Assembly (NCBI GenBank): GCA_918797485.1
Contig: CAKKNE010000001.1
Span: forward strand, 4,588,001-4,652,000
Direction: 5' to 3'
Source of the DNA: Pelagomonas calceolata
Taxonomy: Eukaryota
Length of the DNA: 64,000 bases
Shown: positions 20,217-49,662 of the stretch, one piece after another
Layout: each line of letters opens with the position of its first letter
How positions within the stretch are numbered: the first letter of the stretch is position 1
Translations under genes and position numbers: made by a program
Notes under the pieces: generated by a model
The model's input: only the letters and a program-made list of their open reading frames with translations
What the model was told of the DNA's origin: nothing
The model's database searches: none

Positions 20217-21814
20217 TTACTCGCCGGCCGCCGCCCGCAGCCGCTCCCAGTGCGCGACGGCCGCGCCGACGAGCGCGTAGGCGTCGTGCGTGCCGTCGGC
20301 GCAGTTGAAACAGAGCGTGGCCTGGCCGCCGACGGTGGACAAAGCAGCTCCGACGGCTACACCGGGCGGCGGCGGCAGGAACGGCACGACGCGCTTCACC
20401 GGCCGGCCGCAGATCGTCAGGGCGACGGGCGGGCCCCGCACATTTGTGAGGGCCACGGCGCACCCGCCCGCCGACGCCCGCAGCGACGCGGGCACCCACG
20501 CCCTCGGGAGGCACCGGCCCGCGAGCCGGGCCGCGTGGTAGGCCACGACGGCCCGGGCGCCGCCGCGCAGCGCGCCGCCCACGCCGTCGCGGACCCGTCT
20601 CAGGTGCGCGGCCTCGTCGCGCCCGGGCAGGGGCAGCCGCGCAACGACCGCGCCGATATGATTGCCCACGTCCACACCGGGCGGCAACGCGCCGCCATAA
20701 AGGTGCACCGGCACGGCGCACGCCACCGCGTCTCTCGAAACGGACGTCCGCAGCGCGGCCGCGACCAGCGCCGCGTAGAGGTCGTTGACGGTCGCGCCGG
20801 GCGCCAGCTTCTTCGCGACGCGCTTGAGCAGCGCGACGTCGGCGAAGTCCGACGCCCACGCGACGGTCCGCGGGCCCCGCCGCCGCGGCGGGGGCCGCGG
20901 CGCCGCGACGACCATCCACAACGACGCCAGCACGGCCCGGAGCAGGCGCAGCGACATGACGAGCGGCCCGAACATCACACGCAGCAGGCGCGCCAGCCGG
21001 CTCCGCCGCCGCCGCCGGGGCCCCTGCCTCAGCAGCGCGTCGATTTCCTCGCGCTGGTCCGACAGATTGCCGAACAGGGCCCCGAACGACGCGCCGTCGG
21101 CGATGCAGTGGTGCGACCGCAGGAGGACGTCCGTGCCCGCGCCGCGCGGCCAGACGAGCGCCTCCCACCAGGGCCGCTTCTCCAGCGTGCCCCTTAAAGG
21201 TAGGTCGAGGACCCTGGCGATCGTCCTTGGTAAATCCATCGTCGGCCGCGCCTCCATGACCTGTGTGGAAATCAACCAGTGCGTCGGGTGCACAAAACTT
21301 CACGAAGTCATTTCTCGGCGATGACGTGGCCGCAAGGTCGAGCGGCGAGGAACCGGCATCGCCACGCCATCGATCAGGCATCGCGTCGATGACGTGGAGG
21401 ACGACTCGATTGTCAACTCTGAACGCGTCGTAAAATTTTGATTTCCACACAGTCCATGACGACGGGCGTCGCCTCCTCCGTCGTCAGATCCTCGACGAAC
21501 TCCAGCCGCTCGGCGTCGACGCGGCTCCGGAGGCGCGGCGACGCCGGCGCGACGCGGTCCGCGAGCGCGCGCTCGAGGTCCCTGGCCGCGAGCGGCGCGC
21601 CGCCCAGCTCGAGCAGCACGGCGGGCACCGACGGCGCGTCCCGCGTCTCCGACAGCAGCGCGAAGCGGCCGATCGGCGTGAGCCGCCGCCGGACCGCGTC
21701 GCAGTCCGTCGGCGGCGCGTCGCAGTCCGTCGGCGGCGGCGCCGCGAGCGACGCCGCGCACGCGCCGGCGGCGTACCTGGCCGCGGCCGTCCAGGGGACG
21801 CGGGCGGCCCACAT
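20217..21814 (-). CDS. Wax ester synthase/diacylglycerol acyltransferase (WS/DGAT) family (2 exons; intron 21261-21460)
   Basis: Catalytic HHCIADG, plus ATVND and TNVRGP motifs. Exons join as EEATPV|VMEARPT once the introner is removed. Confidence 0.85.
21261..21452. mobile_element. Introner element copy 1 (192 bp, non-autonomous TIR transposon)
   Basis: TIR CTGTGTGGAAATC...GATTTCCACACAG. Perfect 8-bp TSD TCCATGAC at 21253-21260 and 21453-21460. Confidence 0.93.
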
Positions 21815-22181
21815 CTTTTCGCTGAGGCGTTGAGGTGGTGTTCTGGCGCCGCGACGGCGGTGTTTCGCTGACGCGTTGAGTGGTGCTCTTCCGCCGCGAC
21901 AGCGGAGATTCCAAAAACCTCTCTCTCACACACAGCAAAAAACTACTGCCCGCGAGGCGACAGCTGTTGATCTTGCTGCGGCAGGATTGTACTGACAGAG
22001 TGGTGCTCTGGTAGAGAGCTGCTGCCGCGCTCACGCGCGCTGGCGGCCGGAGCTCCCGTGCTCTCACAGACTGCCAGAGAGCTGCTGAGGACTGGCGCGT
22101 AATTGGCGTCGAGCATACGCAAGCGCTCGCCGGCGTGTCGCGACCTACGACGGAAAACCAAAATCAGCAACAAAGTGATCG

Positions 22182-23324
22182 ATGCTGCGCGTCGCGTCCC
22201 GCAGCAGGCTCCTGGCCGGCGGCACATCATCGCTGCGCATCCGCGTACCGCACCGAGGCGTGCTCAGCCAGGCTGCCAACAAGCGCCTCGACGAGCTGGC
22301 CACGCGCCACGAGGAGCTCTCCAAGAAGGTGCAGGCGGGACACGACGCGAACGCGATGCGCGAGCTGCACGGCCTCGACGACGTGCTCGAGCGGCGCCGC
22401 GCGCTCGCCGCGGCGACGAGCGAGCTCGACGATTTGCGAGAACTCCTCGACGACGTCGACGCCGACATCCGCGCCGAGGCGGAGCGGGAGCTGGACAAGG
22501 TGAAGGCGACCGTAGAGACGCTCGAAGCGGCCCTCAAGGCCAAGCTCGCGCCGGGCGACGCGACGGACGCGGCGGCGTCGTGCCTCGTGGAGATCCGCGC
22601 GGCCGCCGGCGGCGACGAGGCCTCGGTCTTCGCCAAGGACCTGTTGGGCATGTACGAGAAGTACTGCCAAGCGAAAGGCTGGCGCTTCGCGGCGCACGAC
22701 GTCAGGAGGACGGAGTTCGGCGGCGTCGCGAGCGCCATGGCTGAGGTGACGGGAGAGGGCTGCTACGCGGCCTTGCGCTTCGAGAGCGGCGTCCACCGCG
22801 TCCAGCGCGTGCCGACGAACGACGTTAGGATTCACACGTCGACGGCGTCGGTCGTCGTCCTACCCGGTGTCGACCAGATCGAGTTCACGCTAGATGAAAA
22901 CGACGTGCGCATCGACACGTTCCGCGCGTCCGGCGCCGGCGGCCAGCACGTCAACACGACGAACTCCGCCGTGCGCGCGACGCACCTCCCCACGAACACC
23001 GTGGTCTCGATCCAGGACGAGCGGAGCCAGCACCGCAACAAGGCCAAGGCGCTGGAGCTGTTGGCGCGGCGCGTCGGCGGCGCGCTCGCGCAGCGCCGGG
23101 CGGCCGAGGAGTCGGCGCAACGACTCTCGTTGCGCGGCTCGGGCGACCGGAGCGAGCGCATCCGGACATATAACGCTCCGCACGATCGGGTCACCGATCA
23201 CCGCTGCCAAGTGACGAGTCCCGGCGTGCCGCGCGTGCTCGGCGGTGAGATCGAGGTGTTCGTCGACGCGCTGATCCAGCTCGACGCCGACGAGCGCGTC
23301 GCCGCGTTCGAGGCGTCGTCTTAG
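22182..23324 (+). CDS. Organellar (probably mitochondrial) class I peptide chain release factor RF1
   Basis: EIRAAAGGDEA, ESGVHRVQRVPT, GAGGQHVN (GGQ motif), GDRSERIRTYN; N-terminal presequence. Confidence 0.92.
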   Translation: MLRVASRSRLLAGGTSSLRIRVPHRGVLSQAANKRLDELATRHEELSKKVQAGHDANAMRELHGLDDVLERRRALAAATSELDDLRELLDDVDADIRAEAERELDKVKATVETLEAALKAKLAPGDATDAAASCLVEIRAAAGGDEASVFAKDLLGMYEKYCQAKGWRFAAHDVRRTEFGGVASAMAEVTGEGCYAALRFESGVHRVQRVPTNDVRIHTSTASVVVLPGVDQIEFTLDENDVRIDTFRASGAGGQHVNTTNSAVRATHLPTNTVVSIQDERSQHRNKAKALELLARRVGGALAQRRAAEESAQRLSLRGSGDRSERIRTYNAPHDRVTDHRCQVTSPGVPRVLGGEIEVFVDALIQLDADERVAAFEASS

Positions 23325-23366
23325 GTTCGCCCGCGCGCGACTGTTGTGTGTAATGTCCTAGTGTAC

Positions 23367-24197
23367 TTAGCGCCTCGGCAGCACGTGCACGTGCGCGTGG
23401 GGCACGCTCTGGCCCGCGGCGATTCCGTCCTGCACGGCCACGTTCGCGCCCGTCGCGCCGTACTCCTCCGTGATCATCGCGTGGACCCGCCGCGCGGCGC
23501 GCCAGAGGTCTCTATGCAACTCCTCGTCCATCTCGCCGAGCGTCGGCACGACGGCCTTGGGCACGACAAGCACGTGGCCCTCGACCAGCGGCTTGAGGTT
23601 GACGAGGGCCCGGCAGGTCCCGGACTCGAAGAAGACCTGCGACGCGTCGACCGCGAACGGGCCGAACGTCACGTCGGCGGGCTCCGGGAACGGCTCGCCC
23701 CGCCGCCGGTAGCGCGCCGCCTCCGCGGCCATGTCCTCGGCGCTCCGCGGTTTGCGCGCGGCGTCGTCGGGCACGTCGAGCGTCACCGGCGCGCCGCACG
23801 CGTCGAGCGGCGTCCAGCCGTCGATGAGGCCGTAGATCTCGTCGTTGTTCGCGAGGTCGCCCTTCACGCGCGGCACGACGTGCGCGTGGACGTGGGCCAC
23901 GGGCTGGCCCGCGGACGTTCCGTCCTTGAGGGCCACGTTGAAGGCGTCCGCCGCTGGTGTGAGTTGCTGCGCGCGCCGGATCGCTACCGCTAAATCATCA
24001 CCCTCCTCCTCCGTGAGGTCGGCGTAGCGCTCGACGGGCCGCTTCGGCGCCACGACGACGTGGCCCGGCAGCACGGGCCGCAGGTCCCGGACGACGACGG
24101 ATAGCGGCGTCTCGAGCGCGATTTGCGCCGGCCGCAGCGCGACGGGGCCCAGGCGAAGCGCGTGTGACGCGGCGGCCATCGTCGCCAGGCGGCGCAT
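23367..24197 (-). CDS. FHIT-like HIT hydrolase with two tandem HIT domains
   Basis: Two copies of (R/K)P(V/L)xxGHVxVxPK and the triads HVHAHVVPR and HAHVHVLPR. Likely start MRRLATM at 24197. Confidence 0.85.
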   Translation of the reverse strand: MRRLATMAAASHALRLGPVALRPAQIALETPLSVVVRDLRPVLPGHVVVAPKRPVERYADLTEEEGDDLAVAIRRAQQLTPAADAFNVALKDGTSAGQPVAHVHAHVVPRVKGDLANNDEIYGLIDGWTPLDACGAPVTLDVPDDAARKPRSAEDMAAEAARYRRRGEPFPEPADVTFGPFAVDASQVFFESGTCRALVNLKPLVEGHVLVVPKAVVPTLGEMDEELHRDLWRAARRVHAMITEEYGATGANVAVQDGIAAGQSVPHAHVHVLPRR

Positions 24198-24813
24198 CAA
24201 ATTTTCTTCGTCCTGCGCTTTTTGCAGCAGTGCGGCTCTCGCCGCGACTACGTCTCGCTGCGACGACGTATCGCTGCGACGACGTATCGCTGCGACGCGT
24301 ATGGCCTTTTGTTGCAGTGCAGTGCGCACTCCGTCGGAGACCTCCGCAGCTTTTTCAGCTTTTTCCTGCCAGATCGCTTGATGCGTAATCTGTAGATTTT
24401 CTCGAGAGTCCAAGCACCACCGAACGAGCCTGTTGTGTGTGCAGCTAATGCAAAGACCAGGGCATCTCTCCAAAAGCCTCTCAAGTCGCATCGATGCCGA
24501 GCTCAGCGTAGGGGCAGTCCGGACGATTCCTCCAGACGAATGCACCGGTCCGCGAAGGTCCAAAGCCTTGGAGGGCCAAAAACCCGCCAGGAGGCGCATC
24601 TTACCCATCTTACGTCGTTCGACAACTGAGCGCACGGGTGATACGACGTGGGAACGGTCGACGGCGGTCCCGTCGCGCGGCGCGTGCTGCTGCTGCCTCT
24701 GTCCTGCCAAAGTAGCGGCGCTCAGCCGCCGCAGCCGCGCCAGGGAGCGAAGAAAACAAGGCGCCGAGCCTCTGCCGCCTCCCGCGCGACCCACCGAACG
24801 ACTCAGAGGACGA

Positions 24814-24939
24814 GCGACGCCGCGGCGCCGCTGGCTAAGGCCCTCCAAAGGAAGCAGCCGCTTTGCCAGCTTAGCGACGCGAGCGCCCGACAGAAACGAT
24901 GGGCGACGCCGCCGCGCCGCTGGCCGAGGCCCTCCAAAG
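24814..24939. repeat. Imperfect ~37-bp direct repeat, 89-bp period, between divergent genes
   Basis: GCGACGCCGCGGCGCCGCTGGCTAAGGCCCTCCAAAG at 24814 vs GCGACGCCGCCGCGCCGCTGGCCGAGGCCCTCCAAAG at 24903. Confidence 0.7.
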
Positions 24940-26323
24940 CGCAGCGGCCTGGGCCGGCCAAGCGACGACGAACCTGGGCCGCCCGCCGACGAGCCCCTGC
25001 TGGTCCCTCGTCGTGCCGACCGTCGCCGTCGCCACGACGATCCTGCTGAAGGAGGACCGGCCGCGAAAAGCAGCCGAGCAGCGGCCGGTCCCGGGCGCGA
25101 CGTTTTATGACGCGATGCGCCTCCGGTCGGCCGTCTCATTTATTCTCGAGTTAATGTGCTGCATGCTAGCCTACGCTGTATCCTATCTGAGACGACCAAA
25201 AACCGAGAAGGACGTCGTCGCGATCTACTGCGGCTTCGGCTTCATCCCCGGCGAAAAGAATGGGTGGGACGGCAATGCCCTAAAGCGGGGCGCGGGCGGC
25301 TCGGAGCAGTGCGCCATCCGGTTAGCAAGGGGCCTCGTGCACCGGGGCCGGCGCGTCACCGTCTACTCCGGACGGATGAAGCGCTCAATTAATATCGAGG
25401 GCGTCACGTACGCGCCGGCGGCGAGCTTCGACGTGCGCGGCACGTATAACGCCGTCGTCGTCTGGCGCGTGCCCCAGATTTTACTGGTCCAGGCCTGGCT
25501 CGGGCGGTCGCTGGACACGAAAGCTCTCAGTTTTTGGATCCACGACGGCTCGTATCTAGCCATGCTCCACGCCGCCGGTTCTACTTTCCGCGCGCAGATA
25601 CGACGGGCCGTGCGCGTCGCCGACGCCGTCGTGTATCCGAGCCGCGAGATGCGCGTCGCGCAGTTCGGCGCGCTCTTTCCGTCTTCTGATTTTCATGATG
25701 GCGGCCGCGACGTCCTCTCAAAAGCGATGGTCGTGCCGCACGGCGTACCGCGCTACTTCGATGACGTCGACGATGTCGAAAGGCGGGACGGCTGGCTGCT
25801 CTGGCCGGTGTCGCCCGAGCGCGGCCTCGCCGAATTATTGAGGATGCTGCCGGCCTTGCGACGCGCCGTGAAATCAAGGGGAGGCGACTTCCGGGTGGTC
25901 GTGTGCCACCTGCGGGGCGGCTACCACGAAAACACAAAACTGGAGCTGCCGGACGACGTCGTCTTCGCGGGGATGCTACCACCAAAACGGCTCGCGGCGA
26001 TGCTGCGGAGCTGCGCGCTCTTCGTGTTTCCGTCGGCCGTGCCCGAGGCTTTTAGCCTGGCGACGTGGGAGTGCGCGCTGCACGGCGTGATTCCCGTCGT
26101 CTACGGCCTCGGCGCGCTCGCGGCGCTCGGGCGCGTCGGCTGCCCCTGCGTCGCGCCCGGCGACGCGGCGGCGCTCGAGGCCGCGGCCGTCGAACTGCTG
26201 GCGGCGCCGGACGCGGCGGCGGCGCGGCGGCGGGACGTCGTCGCCCGCGCGCGCGCGGCCGCGCGGGACTGGGCCGGGACGGCGCGCTTCTGGGAGGCCA
26301 CGGCCCTGCGGGCGCCGTCCTAA
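24899..26323 (+). CDS. GT-B fold glycosyltransferase (GT4-like); start uncertain
   Basis: GAGGSEQ N-terminal loop; SPERGL; FVFPSAVPEAFSLATWECALHG (E-x7-E motif). Confidence 0.8.
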   Translation: MGDAAAPLAEALQSAAAWAGQATTNLGRPPTSPCWSLVVPTVAVATTILLKEDRPRKAAEQRPVPGATFYDAMRLRSAVSFILELMCCMLAYAVSYLRRPKTEKDVVAIYCGFGFIPGEKNGWDGNALKRGAGGSEQCAIRLARGLVHRGRRVTVYSGRMKRSINIEGVTYAPAASFDVRGTYNAVVVWRVPQILLVQAWLGRSLDTKALSFWIHDGSYLAMLHAAGSTFRAQIRRAVRVADAVVYPSREMRVAQFGALFPSSDFHDGGRDVLSKAMVVPHGVPRYFDDVDDVERRDGWLLWPVSPERGLAELLRMLPALRRAVKSRGGDFRVVVCHLRGGYHENTKLELPDDVVFAGMLPPKRLAAMLRSCALFVFPSAVPEAFSLATWECALHGVIPVVYGLGALAALGRVGCPCVAPGDAAALEAAAVELLAAPDAAAARRRDVVARARAAARDWAGTARFWEATALRAPS

Positions 26324-26706
26324 GTTTTGCTTATTCATTCTCTCCCGCTGGCAGCAGCGCCCTGTCGAGTACAGACCACGACTCCTCCGCCGGCGCGCCG
26401 AGAAATTAGGGTATTAATTAAACCCGCAGCCCCCGCGGCGGTCGTGACTTCGGTCGTGGCGGCTAGGCGGCCTAGCTCTAAGCAAAGCAACCCGAATTTA
26501 CGGCGCAAAGGACCTAGACGTGTCAGCGACTCGGGAGGCGTGGTCTAAACGCGACAGGGCAGCGCCTAGAGGCAAGCACATATGTACATTACTCGCGCGT
26601 CGCGGCGGGATGGTTCGCCGTCGGAGGCGCGGGCGCGGTCAGTTGAGGTACGTGTTGAGGTGAAGCGGGCGGTCGGATGGAATGAAATGAGACGGAGGAG
26701 GGGGCG

Positions 26707-27279
26707 TCAGAGGAAGCGTAGGCCCGCGTCGTCGCGCGTTACGCGGAGCCGGAGCGTCGACTCGGGCTGGATGTGGTACTCGCGGAGCTCCATGTGGTCC
26801 TGGAGGTCCGTACTACCGTGCATGAGGCGCTGCTTGCGGGCCGACACCGCGCCCTTGGAGTGCAGCTTCTTCTTCACGTCGAGGACCGTGTCCGTGGGCG
26901 CGACGTCGAGCAGCGTGATGACGCCGCTCTTGGTGGAGACGTAGAGCTGCATGTGCTCCGCCATGAGCTCGACGTTCTCCTTGGACGGCACGCGGTAGAG
27001 CCGCGTCGGCGGGCGCAGCTCGTCCTCGCTGGCGCGCTGGCCGATGCTCAGGAGCCGCGACTGGATCTCGCTGTCGGGCAGCAGGAGCGCGTCGTCGCTG
27101 GCGTGGCTCGACGCGAGGCCGCTGTCGCTCGCCTGGGCCGACGACCGACGGCTCGACGGCTCGTCGCTCGGGAGCGAGTAGACGACGCCCTTGTCGCTGC
27201 CGACGAGCTGCCCGGGCACCCAGGGCTCGGGCGTCGGCGGCGCGGCGTCGTCCTCCGGCGCCGAGCTGCTGCAGCCCAT
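26707..27279 (-). CDS. N-acylated (MGCSSS) protein with a C-terminal ubiquitin-like domain
   Basis: MQLYVSTKSG...TDTVLDVKKKL...QRLMHGSTDLQD...YHIQPESTLRL is ubiquitin-like and lacks the GG terminus. MGC myristoylation/palmitoylation motif. Confidence 0.8.
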   Translation of the reverse strand: MGCSSSAPEDDAAPPTPEPWVPGQLVGSDKGVVYSLPSDEPSSRRSSAQASDSGLASSHASDDALLLPDSEIQSRLLSIGQRASEDELRPPTRLYRVPSKENVELMAEHMQLYVSTKSGVITLLDVAPTDTVLDVKKKLHSKGAVSARKQRLMHGSTDLQDHMELREYHIQPESTLRLRVTRDDAGLRFL

Positions 27280-27294
27280 CGCGCGCGATGCCGG

Positions 27295-27412
27295 CGCCGC
27301 GCCCGCCGCCCGCGCGGGTTCTCTTGCGATGCCGCGCGCCGCCCGCGCGGGAGTCTCTTGCGATGCCGCGCCCGCCGCCCGCGCGGGAGTCTCTTGCGAT
27401 GCGCCGCCCGCG
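27295..27412. repeat. Tandem repeat, about 3 copies of a 33-36 bp unit, upstream of the ubiquitin-like gene
   Basis: Recurring CGCCGCCCGCGCGGG(A/T)(G)TCTCTTGCGATGC. Confidence 0.8.
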
Positions 27413-27755
27413 CTACTGCTCCTGCTCTTGCCCGGCTGCAAGGATTGCCTTGCAAGGATTGCAGGACGCGACGCCTGGGTGCCGCACGCCCAAGCGGCTC
27501 CGCGAGCGTCTGCGCGTGGTCCGCGGCGGCAATGGGCAGCAATATCTTGCGCTTGGTCGCCGGCTCGCGCGGTTTAAGCGCCGATCATCATCATTTGATG
27601 GTCGAATTGCGACGAACCTAGCATGCCAGCCGTGAGAGCCGTCAGCCACGTTGAGCTGTGTCGGCGTTTGATCTTGGTTTGGAATGATCCGATGTTCAAA
27701 AACCCGTTTCACTGAGAGCTGCCGGCGCCGGCTGTGGGGAGCCCTGCTGGTCAGG

Positions 27756-28754: not shown

Positions 28755-28894
28755 ACTCGTCGACCCCGCTGCTCGCGCCTCGCGCAGGGTTGTACGTTTT
28801 CGTAGTGTTGTCGTGTACTTCTAGTAAGATATAATTGCTCGTTAATTCGGACAGGAACTCAGCCTGAGGAGGGAGCGGGGGGGGAAAGGAATTT

Positions 28895-31800
28895 TCACCG
28901 CGCAGGAGTATCGGGGCCGCCGCGTAGCTCGGCTTTGATCGCGGCGAACGTCGGCCGCGCGTCCGGCTCGTGGGCCCAGCACCGTTGCATGAGCGCGACG
29001 AGGTCCGCGGGCGCGTCGCCATCGATCTTCGGGCGGTCCTTCTGAATGCACACCTGCATCATGATTTGCATCTGATTGAGGCCCGACCATGGCGTATCTC
29101 CGGTAAGTACCTCGAAGACGATCATGCCGTAGGCGTACACGTCGCCCTTTTCGGTGAAAATGTTGTGCTGGAGTAATTCGGGCGCCATGTACGCAGGCGT
29201 GCCTTTGGCGTCGCCCCCGGCCGTCGCCTGCGTCGCCGCCGTGGCCAGCGACTCGGATTTGCTCAAACCGAAGTCCGTCACCTTGCAGCGCCGGTCGCCG
29301 TCGAGGAGGATGTTTAACGTCTTGAGGTCGCGATGCTCCACGCCCTTGGAGTAGAGGTACGCCATCCCGAGCGAGATGTCCGATAGCCAGCTCCTCCGCT
29401 GCGCTTCGTCAATACTTGCCGCGTCGTCGGCGTCGAGCGCCTCGCGCAGGTCACCGCCGCCGCAGTACTCGACGACCAAGCCCAGCCAAGTTGTGTCCGT
29501 TGTCACCACCCCATACACGGCGACGATGCGTGGGCTCCTGAGCTTGACCATGATTGCGAGCTCGGTCGAGAAGTCCTTCATCATCTTGTTCCGCTTCGTC
29601 GCCGTGATGCCGACCTGTGTGGAAACCAGTGTGTCGGGTGCACCCAACAATTCTTCACTAAGTCACCTCGCAGCGATGGCGCGGCTTTTTTTTGGCTCGG
29701 TCGAGCGGCGAGGAACCGGCATCGCCACGCCATCGAGCAGGCGGCGCGTCGATGGCGTGGAGGACGACGCGGCGATTCAGCACGAACGCGCCGTGAATTT
29801 TTGATTTCCACACAGATGCCGACGAGACTCATCTTCTTCAGCGCGACCACGTCGCCTTGGTACGAAGCCTTGTGAACGGCGCCCTGCGAGCCCTTCGCGA
29901 TGGGCTTCTCTTCGACCGAGTCCAACTCGATCTCCAGCTCCTCGAGCGCCCTATCTTTATCCTGGCGCGCCAGCGCGCGGCCCCGCAGCTTCGAGTTCTT
30001 CGCCGCCACCATCTCTTTCACTTCGTCGAGCGACTCCTGCTGCTTCGTGTTCTGGTCGATGACGGTGCTCACGTCCGCGGCGATCTGGTCCAGCTTCAGG
30101 CCGAGCGCCGAGAGCTCCTCGCTCTCGACGGCGCTGCCCTTCTGGATGCCGCACATGATCGCCGCCCGCTGCGCCGCCGCCTGGTTGTTCGCGTCGACCG
30201 TCTGCTGGCCCAGCAGCTGGATCAAGCCCTCGATCTTCTCGAACCGCTGCGCCTGGAGCGCGAGCTGTTGGAGGTCCAACGCCGAGCCGAGCTCGTTGCT
30301 GAGCTCGCAGAGCCGCTTGTCGAGGAGACCAAAGCGCCGCGCGTCGAGCGAGCCGGAGCAGAGCTTCTTAAACGCGCCCTTCTTCGAGAACTGCTGGAGA
30401 AACTTGGCCGCCTCGTCGAGCGCCTGGCCGATGGCCGTCACCGTCCGAGCGACGGCCTCGACCTGTCCCGTCGGCAGGCCCTGCGTCGCTTTGACGACGT
30501 CCTGGAGCTTCTGGGCGATCTCCGTTCCGCGCCGCTGCAGCATGGCCGCGGCTTCCTTGTTGAAGCGCACCTGACGCACCGCGAGGCCGAGTTCGGCCAA
30601 CGCGCTCGTGAACGGCATCAGACACATATTGAGCGGCGGCGGCGCGGCCGCGGGGAGCGCCGCCAGAACCCCGGAGAGCGGCCCGAGGATGTCCATCTGC
30701 GACGCCGTGAGCGCGGCGCCGGCCGCGGCGCCGGCCGCGGCGCCGGCCGCGGCGCCACCGAAGGCGAGCTTGTTGCCCGTGGCGGACGCGGCCGCCGGTT
30801 GCGGCGCCGGTTGCCGCACCGGTTGAGGCGCCGGCACCGGCACCTGGAGCTGGGTCCCGGGTCCAGCCCCGGGCGGGACGACGATGTCTATGGGTTGTCC
30901 CGATGGCGTCATAACCCGGAGCGTGGTGCCAGGCGCCGCGCCCGGTGGAATTGTGATGGTCATGGTCTGCTGCTGCGAATAAGGCGCGGCGGGCGCTTTG
31001 TCCGGCTTCGCGGCGGGCGCGACCTTCGTGCCCTCGTCCTTTTTCTTGCACATCATCTTGCGGCAGAGGTAAACGATGCCGCAGAGGCAGCATAATGGTA
31101 ACATGACGCAGACTATGAGGATGAAGGCGATGCAACCGCCGTCGCACTCGTCCTCTTCGTACGCCGTTGGGGACTTGGTCGAGACCGGCTGCGCTGCAAC
31201 GGGCGCAGCCACAGCATCGACAGTCGCCGTCGCGAAAACGCTGGAGACACCCGCGTCGGCCGCGGCGGTCTGAACGGCAGCGTCGAAGACGGTGGCTGTG
31301 GGAACCAATGCAACTGCGGCCGTCGCGTCCGCCATGGTTGCGTAGAGAATTGTGTAGTCGACGACGACGCTGCCGCTCTGGAGACGCCTTCGGCCAGATG
31401 AAAACGTCACGGTAACCCTGTTGGCTTGGACGTCGTACACGTCGGCGACTGCCGACGCGTAGACGCCCGCGTTCGACTCTGCGTCCGCCAGCGAGATGCC
31501 CGCGCAAGTCATCGATCCCTCGAGGGCGCCGTCGGAGTTGGTGGGCAATACTTGCGGCGTTGGCGGGGGCGTCGCGCAGTTGTCCATTTGCACGACGCCG
31601 CAGGACGTCGACGCGCACGGGGTGCCGGGGAACGAGGGATTGACGTCGTCGCCCACGCACCAGCCGAGGTCCTGGTTAAAGGCCGAGGCACCGTTGAACA
31701 TCCCACTCATATCTAAGACGCCATCAACCACCCAACCACTGATGTCCTGGTTGAAGGCCGAGGCGCCGAAGAACATCGCGCTCATATCCGTGACGCTGTC

Positions 31801-34047
31801 GACCGCCCAACCACTGATGTCCTGGTCGAAGGCCGAGGCAGAGGTGAACATGAAGCCCATCTCATTGACGTTGGCAACGCTCCAGCCGCCAATATTCTGA
31901 TTGAACGACGAGGCGTACCAGAACATCCCGTACATGCTCGTAACGCCAGAGGTGTCCCACGCGCCGATGTCCTCGTTGAAGGACGCCGCGGCCGTGTTGC
32001 AGTACCCATATCCTGAGTGGTCATCAGGGCTTGCACAAAACAAATACGACATGTCCGTCACCCCTGCGGTCGCCCACGTAGAAATGTGGCCGTAGGTCGC
32101 CTCGGCGGCCGCCTGGTCGTCAAACCAAGCCGCGACGGCCGCCCTGATGTTGGCGTCCGTGACGTCGCCCTTGGCGGTCGGCCGCGGCGTCGGGCGCGGC
32201 GTCGGTTTGTCCGTCGGGCGCGGCGACGGCTGCGGCGAAGGACCAGGTGTTGTCGGCATGGACGTGGGCCGCGGCGTCGGCCATTGAGTAACTTTGCAGA
32301 GAGGCTTCGATCCGCCGTGTTCTTCTGGCACGTCGTACCAACGACCTGTCGACTCGACGCCCTCCGTCTCGCAGCAGTTCATAATGGCGTACCTTTCGTC
32401 GTTCCCCTCGTGATTATTCGGTTCCCAATCCTCCCAGTTCGAATAGCCCCAGGGGACGTAGTCGTAGTCGTCGCAGCCCGACGAGGTCCCCTCGACCTGC
32501 AGCTCAAGCACCCACTCGGTAGAGTACAGCTGGAGCGGCGCGTCGAGCGAGTTGCCACTCTCGGCATGATACGTGCTTCCGGTCTGGCTCGACGTCGCCT
32601 CGACGTCGCCGTTGATGAAAATCGACATCGCCGGCGCGTTGGCAGACGAAGAGAACACGACCGTCACCCAGTCGGTCGATTCCAGCCGTGAGTGCGTATC
32701 CCGGTGCCCCACAAACGCCATGCATGGGCCGCCTGCATTCTTATCTTGAGAGACCACGCTGTTGAGGCACATGTGCGTCGTATATTGATCGCTGTCGCCA
32801 AGCGTGAGCCACGCCACGACGTGCCCCTCGAAGTCGTACAGGGTCCAACCTTCAAGACTCCTTCCATCGTTCACGTCTTGAGCTCTGAATCGGAGCTCGG
32901 CGCCGTCCGGGTTAAAGTCGGACAGGACCAATTGTCTGCTCCCGACGGAGGCAATGTTACAGGCGTAAGTCACCTCCGAGTCGTCCACCCACTGCCACGT
33001 CTGGCTCTCCTTGGGCGTCGACGCGTCGCCGCCGACTTCTTCGAGGCCGATCCAGCACGACGAGTCGCCGCAGGCCTCGCGCGCCAGCTCGTTTTCGGTC
33101 GCGCTATGGATGGTCGCGATCTCGGCGCCTATGCTCTGGCAATAGGATTCGGCCGCTGCGTAGTCGCCCGCCTGGCTTCCCGCGACGAAAAGGGGGTTTG
33201 TACCCGGGCAGCACGTGTATTCACAGTCGTCCTCGGTCGGGTTTGGCGGCATCGGGGTGTAGCCGTTCGCGCATGTCGCCGGTTCGCCCCAATCCATCGA
33301 GGCGCAGCAGTCGTAACCATCTCCGCCATCGGTGGACGTGCAGTAGTCCGCGCGACAGCCGTTCGCCCACCTCCAGTCCTCGTACCAGTACTGGACGGCA
33401 AGCGCGTCGTTGCTGCATCCGACGGTGAGTACGTAGTTGCCCGCCGCGCCCGCGTCGCGCGCGTAGTCGGTGTCGCAGTCCGTCTCGAGTGTTTCGCCGT
33501 GATCCGAATAGCCGGTGACCTGGAGCACGTACGTTTCGCCGGCCTGGAGCGGCTGGGAGGTCCAGACGTCCTCGCGGGGCTCCTCGCGACCGTCGAGTGC
33601 GCGGCAAACGTCCTCGCCGGGGTCGTCCCACTCGCCGATGAGACTCACCGCGCCGGCGTGCGGCGCGGGCGATCGGAGGCAGGTGTCCGCCTCGTAGTCG
33701 ACGACGTCGTAGAGGTAAAGATATGTGTCGTAGTCGGAGCCGCACGTCGAGAAGTGGTAGTAGGCCGTCTCGGAGGGCGTGATCACATAGAAGTGGTCGG
33801 GCGCGTCGTTGCCCGAGAGCCAGTGCGCCGCATTGGCTGTGGACTCATGTCTAGTCTCACCGCACGCGATATTTTCGACGAACACGTCGTCCTCGAGTCG
33901 GCGGCCGCGCTCTTTCGGCGCGCTGACCTCGGCGACGAGGCGCTCGGCCGGGGCCGCGGCGCCTCCCGCCAGCAGCAGCACGCCGGCGAGGCGGCATAAA
34001 GCAGCCCCGGCGCCGCGCGCAGCGCGTTTTCTTTGGGGGCTGCGCAT
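28895..34047 (-). CDS. Single-pass receptor kinase: mosaic ectodomain (PPC-like beta domain, Cys-rich module, C-type lectin, DUF285/BspA-like repeats, SEA-like), TM, MLKL-like four-helix bundle, TKL kinase (intron 29615-29823; possible 35-nt intron 28864-28898)
   Basis: Signal-like N-terminus and TM CIAFILIVCVMLPLCCLCGIVYLC. Kinase motifs VALKK, HRDLKTLN, DFG and GTPAYMAPE. Exons join as KKMSL|VGITATK after introner removal. Confidence 0.85.
29615..29815. mobile_element. Introner element copy 2 (201 bp)
   Basis: CTGTGTGGAAA...TTTCCACACAG TIR. Perfect TSD ATGCCGAC at 29607-29614 and 29816-29823. Interior similar to copies 1 and 4. Confidence 0.93.
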
Positions 34048-39233: not shown

Positions 39234-39522
39234 GGTTTTTTTGCTGCGCGTGCGAGGCCGCGCGCGACGCGGGCAGCCCCCGAGTTCGGCTCGACGACTG
39301 CTGCTCCCGGCGCAGCCGCGTGGGTGTTCCTGCTGCGGTCGTTTCGCGGCGCAAACAGCCCCTCGTGTGAATTTGGCAGCTAACTGGCAGGGTAGAGATA
39401 GGGTATCAGGGAGGGGGTAGAGCTAGGCCTTACGAGGCCTGGCCAGCTGGTTGGATGACCGGGTCCCGGCGGTGCTTCGACTACTGCCTTGGAGATCGGG
39501 ACGCTGTTTTTATTCCTACACT

Positions 39523-39981: not shown

Positions 39982-40180
39982 CTCCGTCGGCGCGCGTTCC
40001 TCACGCGCTGCGCTCCTCTGGTTCGCTCGTCATCCTTCGTCGCGGCCACTGTTCGCAGCAAAACGTCCTCAACGGAAGACATAAAGTGTGTTCGCATACT
40101 GTTGGCTAGCTGTAAGACACTAGCAAAGCAACGGCTCGATCGACTCGTTTGGCCCGCGTTTCACGTCCTACTGTTGCAAG

Positions 40181-42205: not shown

Positions 42206-43523
42206 TAATAATTACTTGCCAGTATTGCCTCGTCGCGGCCGCCCTCACTGAAAAGCGAGGAGCCCTCACGCTATTCGCGCGGAGCGGTCCGGAGACCCCC
42301 GCTTCCGCAACGCCTACGTCCGCGTCGGGCTCGCCTACGGATGCGGTGGATCCCGCGCCGCGACGCCGCGCGTTCCCGCGTTGGCTCAAACCTCGGGCCG
42401 CAGTTTTTCGCGGCAAAGACGTCGAGAGAGGCGTCCCTAGGAGTGTCAATACGGATCCGGGGCTCGCGTCCGGTGCGCGTTTCGATGGGACTTCAATCGA
42501 GTAGAGCTTGGCTGCTCTCGGTGGCCACACAGTATTTGATCCGGTGAATCCAGCGCGTTTGCCGTGTTTGCGAGTACTCAGGGCGAGCTTGTTCGAATCG
42601 ATCTGAATGAAACGACGAAGGCCCGCATAGAGCCTTGCGCGCCGCACGACTCATTGCAACCTTCATGACAAGCAGGCTGCAACTAATGTCGTCGGCCTGC
42701 GGGCGGCGGGCCGCGAGGGCTCTGGCATTTGCTAATAGAGTGCGTCGCGACGCTCGCCGATAATTTCCGATCTACGATTGGTGCGCCGCCCGGCGTTGCG
42801 AGGCCGGCGGCGCTCCTGTTCCTGGACGCGTCGAGAAATTACGGCGGCTCGTTCTGTACTATCAACGAATTCATGGCCTGCCCTTTTGTTGAAGGACCAA
42901 ATGGCCTTTTCCACGCGTCTGCGTACGCAGTAGCGGCGCGGGTGGCCGACGCGACGGCCTTCGCGTGTAAGTGATATGTAACATAGAGTTCGATAGCTTA
43001 AAGTCTTAAAAATCCGCGAGCGGCCTCCTACGACGCCGCCGCGACCGCTGATGCGACCGCCCGCGCGGGCCGGCGGCGCTTCGCGGGCGGCGCCTCGGCC
43101 GGCGCATCGACGGCGCTGCGGCAGCAGCGCTGTGATGGCGTGCGCTTGCAGCAGAACATGATAAAGGTGGCCGGGCGTCCTCGCAACCCGCTGGGGCAGC
43201 CTTGGTAGTCAGACTGGGGCAGCCTCGCAGTCAGAGCACCCTTGCAAATCTGCGGTGTCAAGGTAAGATAAGGTACCTTACCCTACATATGAGTACCGCA
43301 GTACAGTACTTTTTGGCTGGGCGGTGATTTCGAGTTTTTCAGAGCTATTTGCAATGGGTGCCACCTCTGGCGCAGAGCCAAGCTATGGTTCGAACCTTGC
43401 GCGCCGCTCAAAACTGATTCTCGGTCTCTCGGCAGCCGTGCTGGGCCTCTTCCTCGTTGCACGCATCGTCGTCGAGGACATTTTACCGCGATTCGGCATC
43501 AGTGGCGGCTCGTCCACGCTGCG

Positions 43524-43991
43524 ATGGTGGTGATTCGAATGTTTCGCGCGGTGCCGAAGCGTTTCGGACCGCGCGCGGCGCCCGCGACCGCGGTGCCGAG
43601 GCGCTTCGGGCACGCGGCACATCCGTCGCGACGCCGCCCGTTCGCGTCCGAGCGGCTCACGGGCGTCATGGGGCTGCCCGTCGACGCGGCGCCGGCCGAC
43701 GTGAAGCGCAGATACCGCGCGCTGGCGCTGGAGACGCACCCCGACCGCCTCCCCAGCAGCGCGACGGCCGCCGACCGCGAACGCGCCAGGCAGCGCTTCG
43801 CCCGGCTCTCGGGCGAGTACGACGCGCGCCTGAAGGGCCGACCGCCGCGCGACCCCTACGAGGGCACGCTCGACCCCGTCTCCGAGGCGGACCAGCTGCG
43901 CGCGCTCGGCTTCATGGTGGTCGCGAAACTCGCGACGATCTTCGTACCCATTGCGGGGCTCGCGGCGGTCGTCGTGGCCCGCGCTAGCTAG
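43524..43991 (+). CDS. Small J-domain (DnaJ) protein with C-terminal TM, probably mitochondrial
   Basis: DVKRRYRALALETHPDR (HPD motif) followed by FARLSGEY. Confidence 0.85.
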   Translation: MVVIRMFRAVPKRFGPRAAPATAVPRRFGHAAHPSRRRPFASERLTGVMGLPVDAAPADVKRRYRALALETHPDRLPSSATAADRERARQRFARLSGEYDARLKGRPPRDPYEGTLDPVSEADQLRALGFMVVAKLATIFVPIAGLAAVVVARAS

Positions 43992-44340
43992 CGCCGAGGT
44001 GCTATTATTTGTTGTGTTGATAGATCGTGCGACGGCTAGCGGGCGGGGCCCTTCGTGGTGTGTTTTGCGCCGCTCGCCGCAACGCTCTTTTTTCGAACCG
44101 CCTAAAAAACGCTTCTCTCGGCCCCCGCGTTTCGATGAAGCCTTTTCAGTCGGAGCCGCTGGCGCTAGTAGGTATATCATCAAATCATCATCATGAACAT
44201 CATGCGCGCTACAAACAGCACGCGACCTAAGGGAAGGGGAAGCCCTCGCAACGCAGCCCGCACGGTCGCGAAGGTACCGTAGGTATCAAAACAAGCGCAG
44301 CGTCCTCCCTGAGGTCCTGGGCTTGCCCTCGCAACGCAGC

Positions 44341-46944
44341 ATGGGGGACGAGGATGCCGATGGCGGCTGCTGTACCATCAAGCGCGGCTCCGGGATCTGC
44401 ATCCTCGTGCTCTCCATCATCTCCTTCGTCGGCACCGTCATCTGCGCGCTCATCGCGTCCTTCACGCACATGCCCCTCTACGCGGCCTTCGGCTGGATCC
44501 ACTTCGTCCTCCTCATTTACCTCATCTCGGCCACCTCGGCCTACGTGTGCTGCCGCGCGTGCGGCAGCAAGGTCACGGGGGGGCTCGCCGTCGGCTACTG
44601 CGTCCTCGCCTTCGTGACCTTCATCGTCCTCGCGACGGGGCAGCAGTCCGCCATGGAGCACTATTGCGAAGGTACGGTGGAGTGCGCCTCCATCTCAGAC
44701 TGGGGCGATCATGATCCCGAGTGCGGGCACAAGACGTCGTCCTTCTCGCTGTGCTGGTTGCCGGAGACGGACGACCGCCGCCGCCGTCTCGCCGCAGCGC
44801 CAGCGTACGCTGAACCGGAAGAAGCTTCTGAGAAGAAAAAGGAGAAGACGAAGAAGAAAGATAGAAAGAAAGACCACACCATTACCAAGAGTTCCAAGAT
44901 CAAGACCAATGAGTCTCCGAGCTCGTCAGTCCAAAGCCTTGAGCAGCGGCGCGTGCTCGTCACGTCGTGCCCCATAACGAGGGATTTCTGCACGAACGAC
45001 GCCTCGCTCCCGGACAACTGCAATTGTGGGGATTGTGGCTACCCGGCGTGCGGCGATTGCGACTGCGATTACTACGGCGACGGACAGTGCTGCACGGGCA
45101 GCTGCACGAGCTGGTTATCGGCGCACGAGCGCTGCCACGACGCGCATGCCACGGGAGACGACGTGAGCTGCTGCGTCGGGGGCGACATCCGGGCGACGTG
45201 TCAGTGCGCCGCGCACTACGAGTGGTGGGACGACCGCCGGCTCTCCGCCGTCGACGAGCCGCGGCGTCTGGGTCACTGCTGCGACTACGGCGCGTACTGC
45301 TCTTGCATGGAGTCGGAGCTCGGCGCCGGCTGCACTGCGCCCGACTGCGGCGGCGACGACTGGGACGAGGACGACGAGGAATGCGACATCGAGACGTTCA
45401 GCGACCTCAATTCCTCTCCAGTCGGCACGACGAACCACGGCGCCGGAGACGGGTGGTGCTACAGCGACCTGGACGAATTCGTGGGCTGCGCGGCGTCGCC
45501 GGGCGACTGCTGGGCGATGTGCCTAGGCTACTACGGCGACGGCCTGGTGGCCATCGACTGGTGGTCGGATGAGGGCGGCCAGTGCTACTGCCAACACGAG
45601 TGCGAGTGCATGGAAGACGTCGGCGCCGGCGCAGGCTACACTGTCACGCGCGACTCGAGGGTCGGCGCGCTGCCGCACGAGTGTGGCCCCGACGAGGGCG
45701 ATGGCGGCGACTGGGACGAGGACGACGACGAGGACTGGATGTGGGAGAACGGCTGCCGCCCGGACTACTGCACCTCCTGGGCCAATGACTGCTGCGCCTC
45801 GATGGATTGGGGCGAACCGGCGACATGCGCGAACAGCTACACTCCGATGCCGTCAAACCCGTCCGAGGACGCCTGTGAATACACGTGCTGCCCCGCGTCT
45901 GTCACCGTGTCTGGCAGCGTGACCCTCTACGAGGACAAGAGCCGCGGCGCGGGATGCGACGCGCTCAGTTATATCAACAACGTCGTGGACGCGGACTCCG
46001 CTGACCACTGCTGCCAGGATGAGGACTATTGTTGCGATTACGGGTCATGCGCCTCTGATTCCGACTATTGTGGCCACCGGTTTCACTGCCCGGAATTCCG
46101 CGTTACCGGCGACCTCACCTTCGAAGGCATCACGTACGAAGCGGCGCAGGACAACACCGAAGTCTTCGTCGCCGCCGTCGCCGATCTCTGCGGCGTGGCC
46201 GCGTCCGCCGTGACCGTGGAAATATGGAGGGCCCGCCGCCGTCGCCTCGCGGAGGGAATCTTGGTGACGTACACCGTGTCCGTCGCGACCGCGAACGAGG
46301 CTCAAACGGTCACGAGCGTGATTTCGAGCAGCTCGACAGCAGACGTCGACGCCGCAATCAGCAAAGCCGCGACGGACGCGGGCGTCGACGACGATTTCGA
46401 CGTCGTTACGACGACCAACGTGGGTACGCCCACGACCCTGAGGTCGGACGGTACGCACGTTGACCCGACGTGGTACTACTCGAAGTGGCCCGACGACTGC
46501 CAGCACGGCGGTGGAGGCGACGACGTCTGCCGCGCGTTCAGGACACAAGACGACTGCATCAACTATTGCTATCAGGACGACGACGACGAGCAGTGCGAGG
46601 ACGTGGACGACCCGGAAGACTGCAATTGGTCGATCGTTACGCACGTCAACGCGGTGGCCGGCTGGTCGACGTTTTTTGCAGGGCTGGTGCTCTTTCCGAC
46701 TCTCGTGTGGGTCGTGCTCCTCTTCTTGGTCCCGGACCCGCAAGCTGCTGCGCCCGTGACCGCGGCGGTGGAGTTGCCACGCATGCAACCCCAAGTGATG
46801 ATGGTATCGCCCGTATCGCCGGGGGGCGGGCAACCTCAGGTGATCATGGGCCAGCCCCAGATTGTCCAGGCGGGGCAAGCTCCGGTGATCATGGGCCAGC
46901 CCCAGGTTGTCCAGGGTGCCCCGTCGAAGCTCGCCGAGTTCTAG
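44341..46944 (+). CDS. Multi-pass membrane protein with a large Cys/Asp-rich extracellular region
   Basis: Three N-terminal hydrophobic helices, many Cys clusters, an RRRL-containing SEA-like segment, a C-terminal TM and a Q/P-rich tail. Confidence 0.75.
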   Translation: MGDEDADGGCCTIKRGSGICILVLSIISFVGTVICALIASFTHMPLYAAFGWIHFVLLIYLISATSAYVCCRACGSKVTGGLAVGYCVLAFVTFIVLATGQQSAMEHYCEGTVECASISDWGDHDPECGHKTSSFSLCWLPETDDRRRRLAAAPAYAEPEEASEKKKEKTKKKDRKKDHTITKSSKIKTNESPSSSVQSLEQRRVLVTSCPITRDFCTNDASLPDNCNCGDCGYPACGDCDCDYYGDGQCCTGSCTSWLSAHERCHDAHATGDDVSCCVGGDIRATCQCAAHYEWWDDRRLSAVDEPRRLGHCCDYGAYCSCMESELGAGCTAPDCGGDDWDEDDEECDIETFSDLNSSPVGTTNHGAGDGWCYSDLDEFVGCAASPGDCWAMCLGYYGDGLVAIDWWSDEGGQCYCQHECECMEDVGAGAGYTVTRDSRVGALPHECGPDEGDGGDWDEDDDEDWMWENGCRPDYCTSWANDCCASMDWGEPATCANSYTPMPSNPSEDACEYTCCPASVTVSGSVTLYEDKSRGAGCDALSYINNVVDADSADHCCQDEDYCCDYGSCASDSDYCGHRFHCPEFRVTGDLTFEGITYEAAQDNTEVFVAAVADLCGVAASAVTVEIWRARRRRLAEGILVTYTVSVATANEAQTVTSVISSSSTADVDAAISKAATDAGVDDDFDVVTTTNVGTPTTLRSDGTHVDPTWYYSKWPDDCQHGGGGDDVCRAFRTQDDCINYCYQDDDDEQCEDVDDPEDCNWSIVTHVNAVAGWSTFFAGLVLFPTLVWVVLLFLVPDPQAAAPVTAAVELPRMQPQVMMVSPVSPGGGQPQVIMGQPQIVQAGQAPVIMGQPQVVQGAPSKLAEF

Positions 46945-47430
46945 GCCACCGTCCTCGAGTTGAGATTCCTCAGAGCCCCGGCTTCTACCCGATCCGGCTC
47001 CCTCTCTCCCTCCCCCTTGCCACATGTCCAGACCGCCATCCACGTGGAGCATACTATTCACGTCAAAGGTCTAAGTACCTAAATTGCAGACTTGGAGTTT
47101 AGACGGGTGGAAAGGGCTAGTTCCGACGAGCGGCGCAAAACTCACTAGGGCCTGTGCCCTGTACCGCTAACAGTACGGGCACGGGGAAGACACCGCGCGT
47201 CGCCGATCCATTGGCCGGGCGGGCTTCGCCTCTTCGTAACAAACTTCGTAACATATATATAAGTATACATATATGTACCGTCAGGGGACTACAAAAACGG
47301 GGTATGCCTTTTACCCGGGCCCGTTAGGTGCGGCGCAAACCTTGATGACACCGCACGAGTGCCTAGTTTACGCGTGTCGGCTCTCCATGTACATATAGAT
47401 GATTTGTTGACTAGGAGATATTGACACAAA

Positions 47431-49662
47431 ATGCGCCGCCTCGTCGCGCTACTCGCCACGACCGCGCGCGCCCAGACGCCGCGCCGCGTGCACGGCTTCG
47501 ACGTCCGGACGAAGGCGGGCCACGCCTTCAAGTGCCTCGACGCGTTTATCGCGCCGGCGCCGTGGAACGCGAGCGCGCCCGCGCTGATCGGCATATGCCA
47601 TCCCGGCCACCGCCAGCTGACCTGGGCCGGGGGCCGCTGCGGCTTTCGTTACGCGTCCACAGAAATGGATGCGCGCGTCGCGAGGGAGGCGGGCCACGAG
47701 GTCTTCGCCTGCGCCGTGCCGCCCACCGAGCAGCTCGACGGCAAGTTTTTGGGCGCGCGCCTCACGGACGGCGATCATAATAAAGCGATAAGCGTGACGG
47801 CGTCGACGTGGCCCTGGCGCCAGCGCTCTAAGAAATACGGCGTGGCGGTGACGTTCATGGGCAAGGACGTCGCCTGCGGCCTTAATAAAGGATTCGAGGC
47901 GCACTGCTTCCGGGACTGGCTCGAGTGGCACCGCCTGCTCGGCGCGGACCACTTTCTGGCGTACGACAACGGGTCGCGCGGGGACCACGCGTGGCTCCGG
48001 GTCGCGCGGCACTACGCGCGGCGCGGGCTGCTCACGCTCGTCGACTGGCCCTACCAGCTCGGCGGCGAGGGCACGACGGGCAACAACGTCGCGCAGCGCG
48101 CGCAGCTCTCGCACGCGGCCTTCGCGTTCTCGCCGCGCGTGGCCTGGCTCGGGACCTTTGACGTCGACGAGTTCTTCGCGCAAGCCGGTGTGGAAACCAT
48201 GGATCGATCTGAGGCGGTCGCGCAGGTCCCGGTGCCGCTCGGCAAAGCACCACAACTCAACGCGTCGATCAAAAAGCTCCTCGACGGCGTCGACGCGCCG
48301 GCGTTCCCCGACGAGGCGTATTCCGTCGTCGCCCCGATGCGCGACGCCCAGGCGCCGGACACGTGTCTTACATCAAACGGCGCGACGACGCGCCTCGCGG
48401 CCTGCTTTTACCTGTGTTGAAATCAAAATTTTACGGCGCGTTCAAGAATTGTCGTGCACCCGACGCACTGGTTGGTTTCCACACAGGCTCGTACTACCAC
48501 GCGACGGACGAGCGGGGCCACCCCAAGGCCTTTCGCCGCGGCGGCCGCGCGCACCCCATCTTCAGCCCCCACCGCGCCAAGGTCCTGCACGGGCCGGCGC
48601 GGGGCGCGACCCTCTGTGTGGAAATCAACCAGTCCGTCGGGTGCACGACAATTCTTCACTAAGTCATTTCTCGGCGATGACGCGGCCGTCCTGGCTCCGT
48701 CGAGCGGTGAGGAACCGGCATCGCCACGCCATCGAGCAGGCGTCGCGTCGATGGCGTGGAGGTCGACACGGTGATTCAGACGAACGCACCGTAAAATTTT
48801 GATTTCCACACAGGCGACCCTGGACGACGCGGCACACTTCGTGCACTACACGGGCCGCTACGGCTGCGGCGCGGCCGAATCCGCGGGCTGCGTCTTGTAC
48901 GAGGCGCTCCGGGCGTCGCCGGCCGTCGCGCGGCTCGAAGCGGTACTAGCGACGCTCCCGCCGCTCCCGATCCCGGCCCAGGCGCCCGTGTCGCCGGTGA
49001 CGCCACGGCCGACGCTCGCGAAGAATTCGGGCCCCTGGGCGCCGGACGAGGTAAAACGCTTCGACGCCGCGTTCAAGCGCTTCTATAACGACGGCCTCCC
49101 CGATTGGTCGGGCCGCGCTGCGGCCTACGTGGGGACGCGGGACAAGTACCAGGTCCAGACGTTCAAGCGCGCCCGCGTAAAACAAAAAGACCCTTACTAC
49201 ACTAGTACCCGACCCACGCGTGGTCGCAGCCGAGGTCGCGGAGCTCGACGGCGTCGAGCCACGCGCACTGGCAGCAGTAGGCCGCGTGGCCGTCGGCGGC
49301 CTCGGCCTCCTCCAGCAATCGCGCTGGATCGGGGTGGTAGTTCCGGAAGTGCAGGTACGCGGCGGTCGGCCGCCACCGGTAGCCCGGGAAGCGCGACACG
49401 TCGTGCGCGCACTTCGTGCAGCGCAGCCGCGCGGACACGACGCCGCGCATCTTCGACGGCGCGGCGCCGGCCGCGAAGCGCGCGCCGCCGACGAGCGCCG
49501 TCTTCCGCCTGCCCGGCTGCGGCGGCGGCGGCGCCCGGTCCTGGGCGAGGCGCGCGAAGAGCGACGACGCGCCGCCGCTCTTCTTTGATGGCGGGACCTT
49601 CGGCGGCGGCGGGTCGTCGCGGACCTTCGGCGACGGGCGGGGCGCCGCGTCCGCGCGCATGA
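47431..49662 (+). CDS. GT92/DUF23-like glycosyltransferase with a C-terminal Myb/SANT-like segment (introns 48404-48486 and 48606-48813; 3' end uncertain)
   Basis: DWLEWHRLLGADHFLAYDNGS and WLGTFDVDEF (DxD) motifs. Removing two introners restores the frame (AAC|SYYH...HPK; RG|ATLDDAAHFVHY). Confidence 0.75.
48412..48486. mobile_element. Introner element copy 3 (75 bp, internally deleted, opposite genomic orientation)
   Basis: CTGTGTTGAAATC...GGTTTCCACACAG. Degenerate TSD GCTTTTAC/GCTCGTAC (6 of 8 match). Confidence 0.85.
48614..48813. mobile_element. Introner element copy 4 (200 bp)
   Basis: TIR CTGTGTGGAAATC...GATTTCCACACAG. Perfect TSD GCGACCCT at 48606-48613 and 48814-48821. Confidence 0.93.

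Follow-up and report, generated by a model that had tools for sequence, protein, structure and literature searches.

Four short elements interrupt three genes

We analysed a 64,000-nucleotide (nt) stretch of the Pelagomonas calceolata genome (the window; assembly GCA_918797485.1, contig CAKKNE010000001.1, positions 4,588,001 to 4,652,000 of the forward strand), in which four short repeated elements are distributed over three genes. The original prediction, made from the letters of the window, had described them as introners, transposons removed from transcripts by splicing, with shared terminal inverted repeats (TIRs). TIR pairing and a profile search bore out this relationship and found the four elements exactly where it had placed them. 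The window has no further paired TIR match. The elements measure 192, 201, 75 and 200 base pairs (bp) and are called copies 1 to 4 below. In the nhmmer profile search copies 1, 2 and 4 matched with E = 5e-70 to 2e-64, and copy 3 gave two matches, one for each half. The TIR is 15 bp long and perfect in copies 1 and 4, and the full-length copies 1, 2 and 4 are 82–89% alike in pairwise comparison. The 8-bp target site duplications (TSDs) claimed for all copies are perfect at copies 1, 2 and 4, but copy 3 agrees at only six of eight positions (GCTTTTAC / GCTCGTAC). The host genes and the elements within them are as follows.

20217..21814, − strand: host of copy 1, a wax ester synthase/DGAT-type gene (WS_DGAT_C), 465 amino acids after predicted splicing
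21261..21452, + strand: copy 1, 192 bp, perfect 15-bp TIRs, antisense to host (TIR pairing, profile)
21253..21460, − strand: copy 1 with perfect TSDs (21253-21260, 21453-21460); predicted 200-nt GT-AG intron 21460-21261 (colinear homologs)
28895..34047, − strand: host of copy 2, a large receptor-like kinase gene with C-type lectin, DUF285 repeats, weak MLKL_N and kinase
29615..29815, + strand: copy 2, 201 bp, antisense to host (TIR pairing, profile)
29607..29823, − strand: copy 2 with perfect TSDs (29607-29614, 29816-29823); 209-nt GT-AG intron 29823-29615 (RNA skip)
47431..49100, + strand: host of copies 3 and 4 and of the stub below, a glycosyltransferase family 92-like gene with a provisional 3' end
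48412..48486, − strand: copy 3, 75-bp internal deletion derivative without hairpin (profile)
48404..48494, + strand: copy 3 with 6/8 TSDs (48404-48411, 48487-48494); predicted 83-nt GC-AG intron 48404-48486
48614..48813, + strand: copy 4, 200 bp, perfect TIRs, sense to host; hairpin arms 48724-48735 and 48748-48759
48606..48821, + strand: copy 4 with perfect TSDs (48606-48613, 48814-48821); predicted 208-nt GC-AG intron 48606-48813
48178..48225, + strand: fifth, degenerate candidate, an in-frame stub of 48 nt (GC..AG) that resembles the start of the TIR from 48186 on, with 2 mismatches in 13

Copy 3 consists of the left 43 and right 32 bases of the element joined together and is inverted on the + strand. 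Relative to their hosts, copies 1–3 lie one way (antisense) and copy 4 the opposite way (sense); copy 2 enters its host early in the kinase domain. An internal hairpin that had been called conserved is perfect in copies 2 and 4, carries one mismatch in copy 1 and is missing from copy 3. Recomputed intron lengths are 200, 209, 83 and 208 nt for copies 1–4, reproducing those first proposed for the full-length copies. As none of them is a multiple of three, retention would shift the frame in all four hosts, whose reading frames survive only if each element is removed. The stub at 48178-48225 is likely a decayed copy of the same family, a descent resting on 13 bases. A 30-bp match to the element interior at 55002-55031 has no ends and was not counted as a copy; another short interior match without ends, at 12053-12118, forms its own small inverted repeat. 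A literature search for the nucleosome repeat length in P. calceolata returned nothing relevant.

Removal of element and one TSD leaves host proteins colinear with homologs

When each element was removed together with one TSD copy, the joined proteins were colinear with uninterrupted homologs, with no insertion or deletion (indel) at any of the four sites. At copy 1, there was no junction indel against P0001 (94%) or P0002 (81%), and the copy-2 site was crossed without indel by P0080 (98% over exon 2) and by other kinases. Four alleles of the glycosyltransferase gene (P0067, P0071, P0077 and P0079) crossed the sites of both copies 3 and 4 without indel. Beyond these sites, the four enter a family member at another position and so seem to represent genomic sequence, empty at the copy-3 and copy-4 sites. 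Proteins of the P0002 cluster are uninterrupted at the copy-1 site on contigs of 18–50 kb, so a sister lineage probably lacks the insertion; P0003, P0034, P0052, P0055 and P0058 read out of the TIR, indicating that the copy-1 insertion is common to other alleles. Judged from these sequences, orthologous sites in close relatives appear empty at copies 1, 3 and 4, as would be expected after recent gain.

RNA reads support splicing most directly at copy 2. In the raw reads of the stranded RNA run X24 we observed a 209-nt skip with a joint at 29605-29815, a cut at +9 and CT..AC ends, supported by 72 reads with 44 different starts, all on a single strand. The same skip was present in contigs of RNA runs X6 and X10, and it was seen zero times in the metagenome DNA run X14. 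Thus, of the junctions proposed in the original prediction, that of copy 2 was recovered exactly (subject to the paralog caveat below), and copies 1, 3 and 4 had too little RNA; its claim that the frame is restored exactly in all four cases is upheld by indel-free homologs at four sites and by RNA at one only. Elsewhere in the genome, one abundant polyadenylated (polyA) transcript retains a family member together with its flank, in thousands of reads (aligned at 48614 and 21258).

TSD starts supply a probable splice donor on the sense strand

To describe the family beyond the window, we scanned metagenomes with the right end of the element and obtained at least 120 loci, on which all family statistics are based; because the scan pattern fixed the right end, the sample of termini is biased. 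Among the loci listed there were 122 right ends, 92 of them with a left end as well. These two-ended copies measured 51–239 bp, with 21 at exactly 203 bp and 55 under 190 bp. For the 90 two-ended copies with both flanks, the TSDs were perfect in 47, matched at 7/8 positions in 23 and at 6/8 in six, and were worse in 14. We kept the 70 copies at 7/8 or better and removed two duplicates, leaving 68 unique sites. A GT or GC opened the TSD on at least one strand at 67 of these 68 sites, and on both strands at 22 of the 67 (expected 9.6%, p=1.5e-7).

The host strand was assigned by a codon heuristic at the 54 of 68 sites with enough flank and could be called at 41. On the sense strand these 41 TSDs began with GT (28), GC (12) or CC (1); a GT or GC start was thus found at 40 of 41 on the sense side versus 14 of 41 on the antisense side (p=2e-10). 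The GT or GC start claimed for the upstream TSDs of the window, GT at copies 1 and 2 and GC at copies 3 and 4, is shared by 40 of the 41 strand-called metagenome copies. Element orientation was nearly balanced (23 one way, 18 the other). As the TIR begins with CTG, a CAG acceptor is available at both ends, and either orientation works.

The asymmetry between strands could in principle arise from splicing selection alone, with no intrinsic target preference. We consider this unlikely, as the antisense side is itself enriched: GT starts there amounted to 10 of 41 against a background of 5.9% (p=1e-4), and T at TSD position 2 to 19 of 41 against 17.5%, although errors in the strand calls could inflate this enrichment. 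T stood at position 2 in 28 of the 47 perfect TSDs and A at position 7 in the same number, the latter also speaking against selection as the sole cause. The 8-bp targets of hobo (GTNCGNAC) and P elements (GTCCGGAC) share a palindromic GT..AC motif (PMC3276498 Tables 3-4). In our interpretation the TSD bias reflects a preference for palindromic targets that selection for a donor on the sense strand, be it GT or GC, has sharpened.

Contig depth summed over copy 4 was about 1,700 (run X4) to 3,000 (run X2) times that of the flank, a ratio that is not a copy number. Four copies in 64 kb point to a genomic copy number of the order of thousands.

The upstream TSD is the probable donor

Taken together, these are very probably non-coding TIR elements of about 203 bp with 8-bp TSDs that sit in Pelagomonas genes, are spliced out with one TSD copy and likely belong to the published family fam2 (see below). 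Splicing from a TSD donor to a TIR acceptor is supported by the indel-free homologs, the RNA skip at copy 2 and the 40 of 41 GT/GC starts. With TIRs, TSDs of fixed length and no coding capacity, the elements are TIR DNA transposons of the miniature inverted-repeat transposable element (MITE) type; as similar sequences repeated at unrelated genic positions, with boundaries that are splice sites (by RNA at copy 2), they are also introners.

Several observations weigh against this interpretation. Most reads over the copy-2 region carry other letters than the window (119 of 132 at 29366, 109 of 140 at 30369), so that the 72 junction reads may derive largely from paralogs or alleles that never held the element. 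No RNA junction was found for copies 1, 3 and 4 or the stub among the joints listed, where coverage was thin (depth below 7 at copy 1; exon depth about 0–2 at copies 3 and 4 in run X21). PolyA RNA contains thousands of reads in which other copies are joined to their flanks (3278 for the left end); removal is thus incomplete for some copies, or those copies lie in untranslated regions. The strand calls depend on a codon heuristic that left 13 of 54 sites uncalled, with 14 of 68 lacking enough flank. The TIR search beyond the window, which the original prediction had proposed, produced the metagenome loci, all of them short, but no long element, transposase or autonomous partner among them. Finally, the P. 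calceolata protein CAH0366104.1 differs from the predicted host protein of copy 1 at the junction only. Its gene model joins copy 1 through a TIR-internal donor and a later acceptor, 12 nt and 9 nt further on than predicted, respectively, and gains one residue. The proposed junctions are therefore matched by the RNA joint at copy 2 and not by the public model at copy 1.

This model bears on the possibility that some copies, especially copies 3 and 4 with their GC TSDs, use a GT at TIR position 5 and so leave 12 extra nt, or four residues, in the mRNA. An in-frame donor of this kind (+12 nt) is present in all four copies and is the one used by the public model of copy 1, the same variant is described for an Aureococcus sp. 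family in the part of PMC9860276 covered (Fig. 2F), and GC donors make up 42 of 340 introns in the fam2 entry of PMC12130899, as far as that source was covered, versus GC starts at 12 of 41 sites here. However, the copy-2 joint skips 209 nt and not 197. If the TIR donor were sufficient, a GC start would not be selected, yet among TSDs with a start other than GT, the sense strand showed GC in 12 of 13 and the antisense strand in 4 of 31 (p=1e-6). We therefore regard use of the TIR donor as improbable, somewhat more so than selection without target preference. That the elements are ordinary MITEs that inactivated their host genes and stay unspliced is very hard to credit. Expression of the gene with copies 3 and 4 is very low in X21, and polyA reads with the element from other loci are abundant; against this, long open frames and intact domains persist in the host exons, donors are biased by strand and copy 2 is skipped in RNA.

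Under TSD-donor splicing, a cut-and-paste transposase likely moved the elements, and a TSD copy and the element would leave together by splicing, as seen in RNA at one site and predicted from homologs at the others. The donor would be the GT or GC that opens the upstream TSD copy, which the strand-called sites indicate statistically. Like those of hobo and P elements, the preferred targets of the transposase are likely palindromic, of the form GT/GC-N4-AC/GC; such a preference would give a larger share of spliceable insertions, and selection would remove coding insertions without a sense-strand donor.

Wild alleles differ in occupied sites and elements probably shrink in place

Within about 390 coding bases of the glycosyltransferase gene we found five insertion sites that are occupied in different subsets among wild alleles. 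The alleles match at about 81–95% in protein over the aligned parts, and those compared may include paralogs or sister species. Two of the sites, placed from protein translations, are empty in the window:

48132..48139, + strand: empty GC-starting site; family member there in P0027 and P0076
48854..48861, + strand: empty GC..AC site; family members of different lengths in P0067, P0071, P0077 and P0079

Copy 3 is longer in P0029, three element lengths occur at site 48854, and the 48-nt stub is missing from four alleles but carried by others. Scoring presence and absence in metagenomes, as had been suggested, thus revealed wild alleles of one gene that differ in their occupied sites.

Among 39 full-length copies, mean pairwise identity was 90.5% and the maximum 96.6%. 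Such values are consistent with a past burst and do not point to present activity, so the description of the family as recently active stands for the burst only. In these copies substitutions reached 0.074 per site at CpG versus 0.047 elsewhere, with C>T commonest; the CpG excess is compatible with CpG methylation. Among 48 shortened copies there were 66 deletions of at least 10 nt; 26 of them began at element positions 29–35, the centre of a perfect 16-bp palindrome at 23–38, and 16 ended at 169–175. These data come from short-read assemblies, in which artefacts are possible; copy 3 itself was matched by a DNA contig of run X2 over 47000-48473 with 0 differences.

After the burst, copies would have drifted and shrunk in place by internal deletions sparing about 30 bp per end, and, as the allele comparisons suggest, shrunken copies would end as short, ordinary-looking introns. 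We find it plausible on balance that the whole life cycle of a transposon-born intron, from target-seeded gain to shrinkage, can be read from living alleles of wild Pelagomonas. The GT..AC preference would supply donors beforehand and seed different introns in different lineages of one gene; two deletion hot spots, each some 30 bp from an end, would then carry copies from 200 to 75 to about 40 bp and on to short introns.

The hairpin arms are conserved at 97.9% and 97.4% versus 91.6% for the remaining interior. A conserved RNA structure was rejected: of 468 pair cells 448 were the same, 9 were wobble, 11 were broken and none was compensatory, and the hairpin is missing from copy 3.

The family is probably already catalogued

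The original prediction had held the family not to be identifiable; a matching one has probably been listed. Supplementary file 8 of PMC12130899, in the part covered, names 11 P. calceolata introner families. Its row 1080, fam2 (Gozashti et al. 2025), comprises 340 introns of 202 bp with a 13-bp TIR and 281 GT plus 42 GC donors, is described as co-opting the 5' and carrying the 3' splice site, and is labelled hAT, with a Repbase blastn match to hATv-2N1_EHux and no transposase match in that row. By this description, the window elements are likely fam2: the species is the same, the length is 202 bp against a majority of 203 bp here and the TIR 13 against 15 bp, and both have GT and GC donors, an AG acceptor, a co-opted 5' and a carried 3' site. 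In the same portion of that source, fam1, fam3 and fam39 may be the same or sister families. The covered part of Guerin et al. 2022 (PMC9481584) reports 956 putative introner elements with GT/GC donors, AG acceptors and TIRs, and an intron length peak of about 210 bp in Pelagomonas. The TIR letters did not occur in the portions of published supplements searched, and a full-text literature search with them gave only unrelated papers among the matches listed. For fam2, the literature covered contained no target motif, allele polymorphism or deletion hot spots; Huff 2016 and further supplements may contain them.

The TSD/TIR splice mechanism, too, had been correctly presented as prior work, being described in the part of PMC9860276 covered, which also gives the +12-nt variant. 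The observation is thus of a known kind and mainly a confirmation, as the mechanism and probably the family are published. It adds a target motif that would account for the family's role as an introner, shows that wild alleles of this alga, abundant in the open ocean, differ in the introns they carry, and makes visible how an element could turn into a plain short intron; copy 1 also illustrates that gene models can misplace introner junctions. Huff, Zilberman and Roy reportedly described in 2016 short non-autonomous TIR introner elements of Aureococcus anophagefferens that carry one splice site, co-opt the other from the TSD, leave mRNA length unchanged and insert into nucleosome linkers. Likened by description, these belong to a different pelagophyte genus and follow the same splice scheme as the Pelagomonas family.

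Superfamily candidates include hAT, P and others, with no transposase seen. The 8-bp TSD and a preference of the nTnnnnAn type agree with hAT, but P elements share this type of preference, so that it does not discriminate. Typical hAT ends start with CAG or TAG, whereas the Pelagomonas family ends in CTG..CAG: in the biased sample, with its right end fixed by the pattern, 205 of 214 end matches had CTG and none CAG, so the hAT 5' terminus is not what we found, and no CAG-ended ancestral TIR was seen in this sample. Both hAT (hobo) and P elements resemble the family in their 8-bp TSD and palindromic GT..AC target motif (PMC3276498). There was no hAT Pfam row in the portion of the published annotation covered. 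Of 30 one-ended loci, 16 had at least 130 bases upstream; these 16 were truncated or degenerate copies in host DNA. Open reading frames at loci L041 and L005 were rejected as an autonomous partner, as each lies behind a common upstream motif in the manner of a host gene and, in the two frames scanned, has no transposase domain. A viral vector was also rejected: in IMG/VR the right-end pattern had three matches, none an element by profile search, and the left-end pattern none. GTDB genomes gave one match, at the end of a 2.7-kb contig of 64% GC from a metagenome-assembled genome, which is probably contamination.

Other features of the window

The copy-2 host also has a likely membrane span, and its MLKL N-terminal match is weak, falling below the cut-off with E=1e-4. 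Close paralogs of this gene are numerous, and a receptor/cell-death-type architecture is possible. Inverted matches between 33206-33383 and 45728-45893 (107 bp at 95% and 50 bp at 90%) correspond to a cysteine-rich coding module common to this kinase gene and the gene at 44197-46941. Two further high-copy repeats unrelated to the introner were apparent from DNA-run read depth, at 47200-47260 and 26350-26690. Finally, a motif of about 22 bp, GCTAGCG-N-GTAA-N-CACTAG, occurs at 11403, 16033 and 52494 (+) and at 19791 (−), often shortly upstream of ATG. Four occurrences in the window versus zero in 20 shuffles, and about 30 matches in loci L005-L108, make it look like a core promoter element of Pelagomonas, judging by its letters and position.

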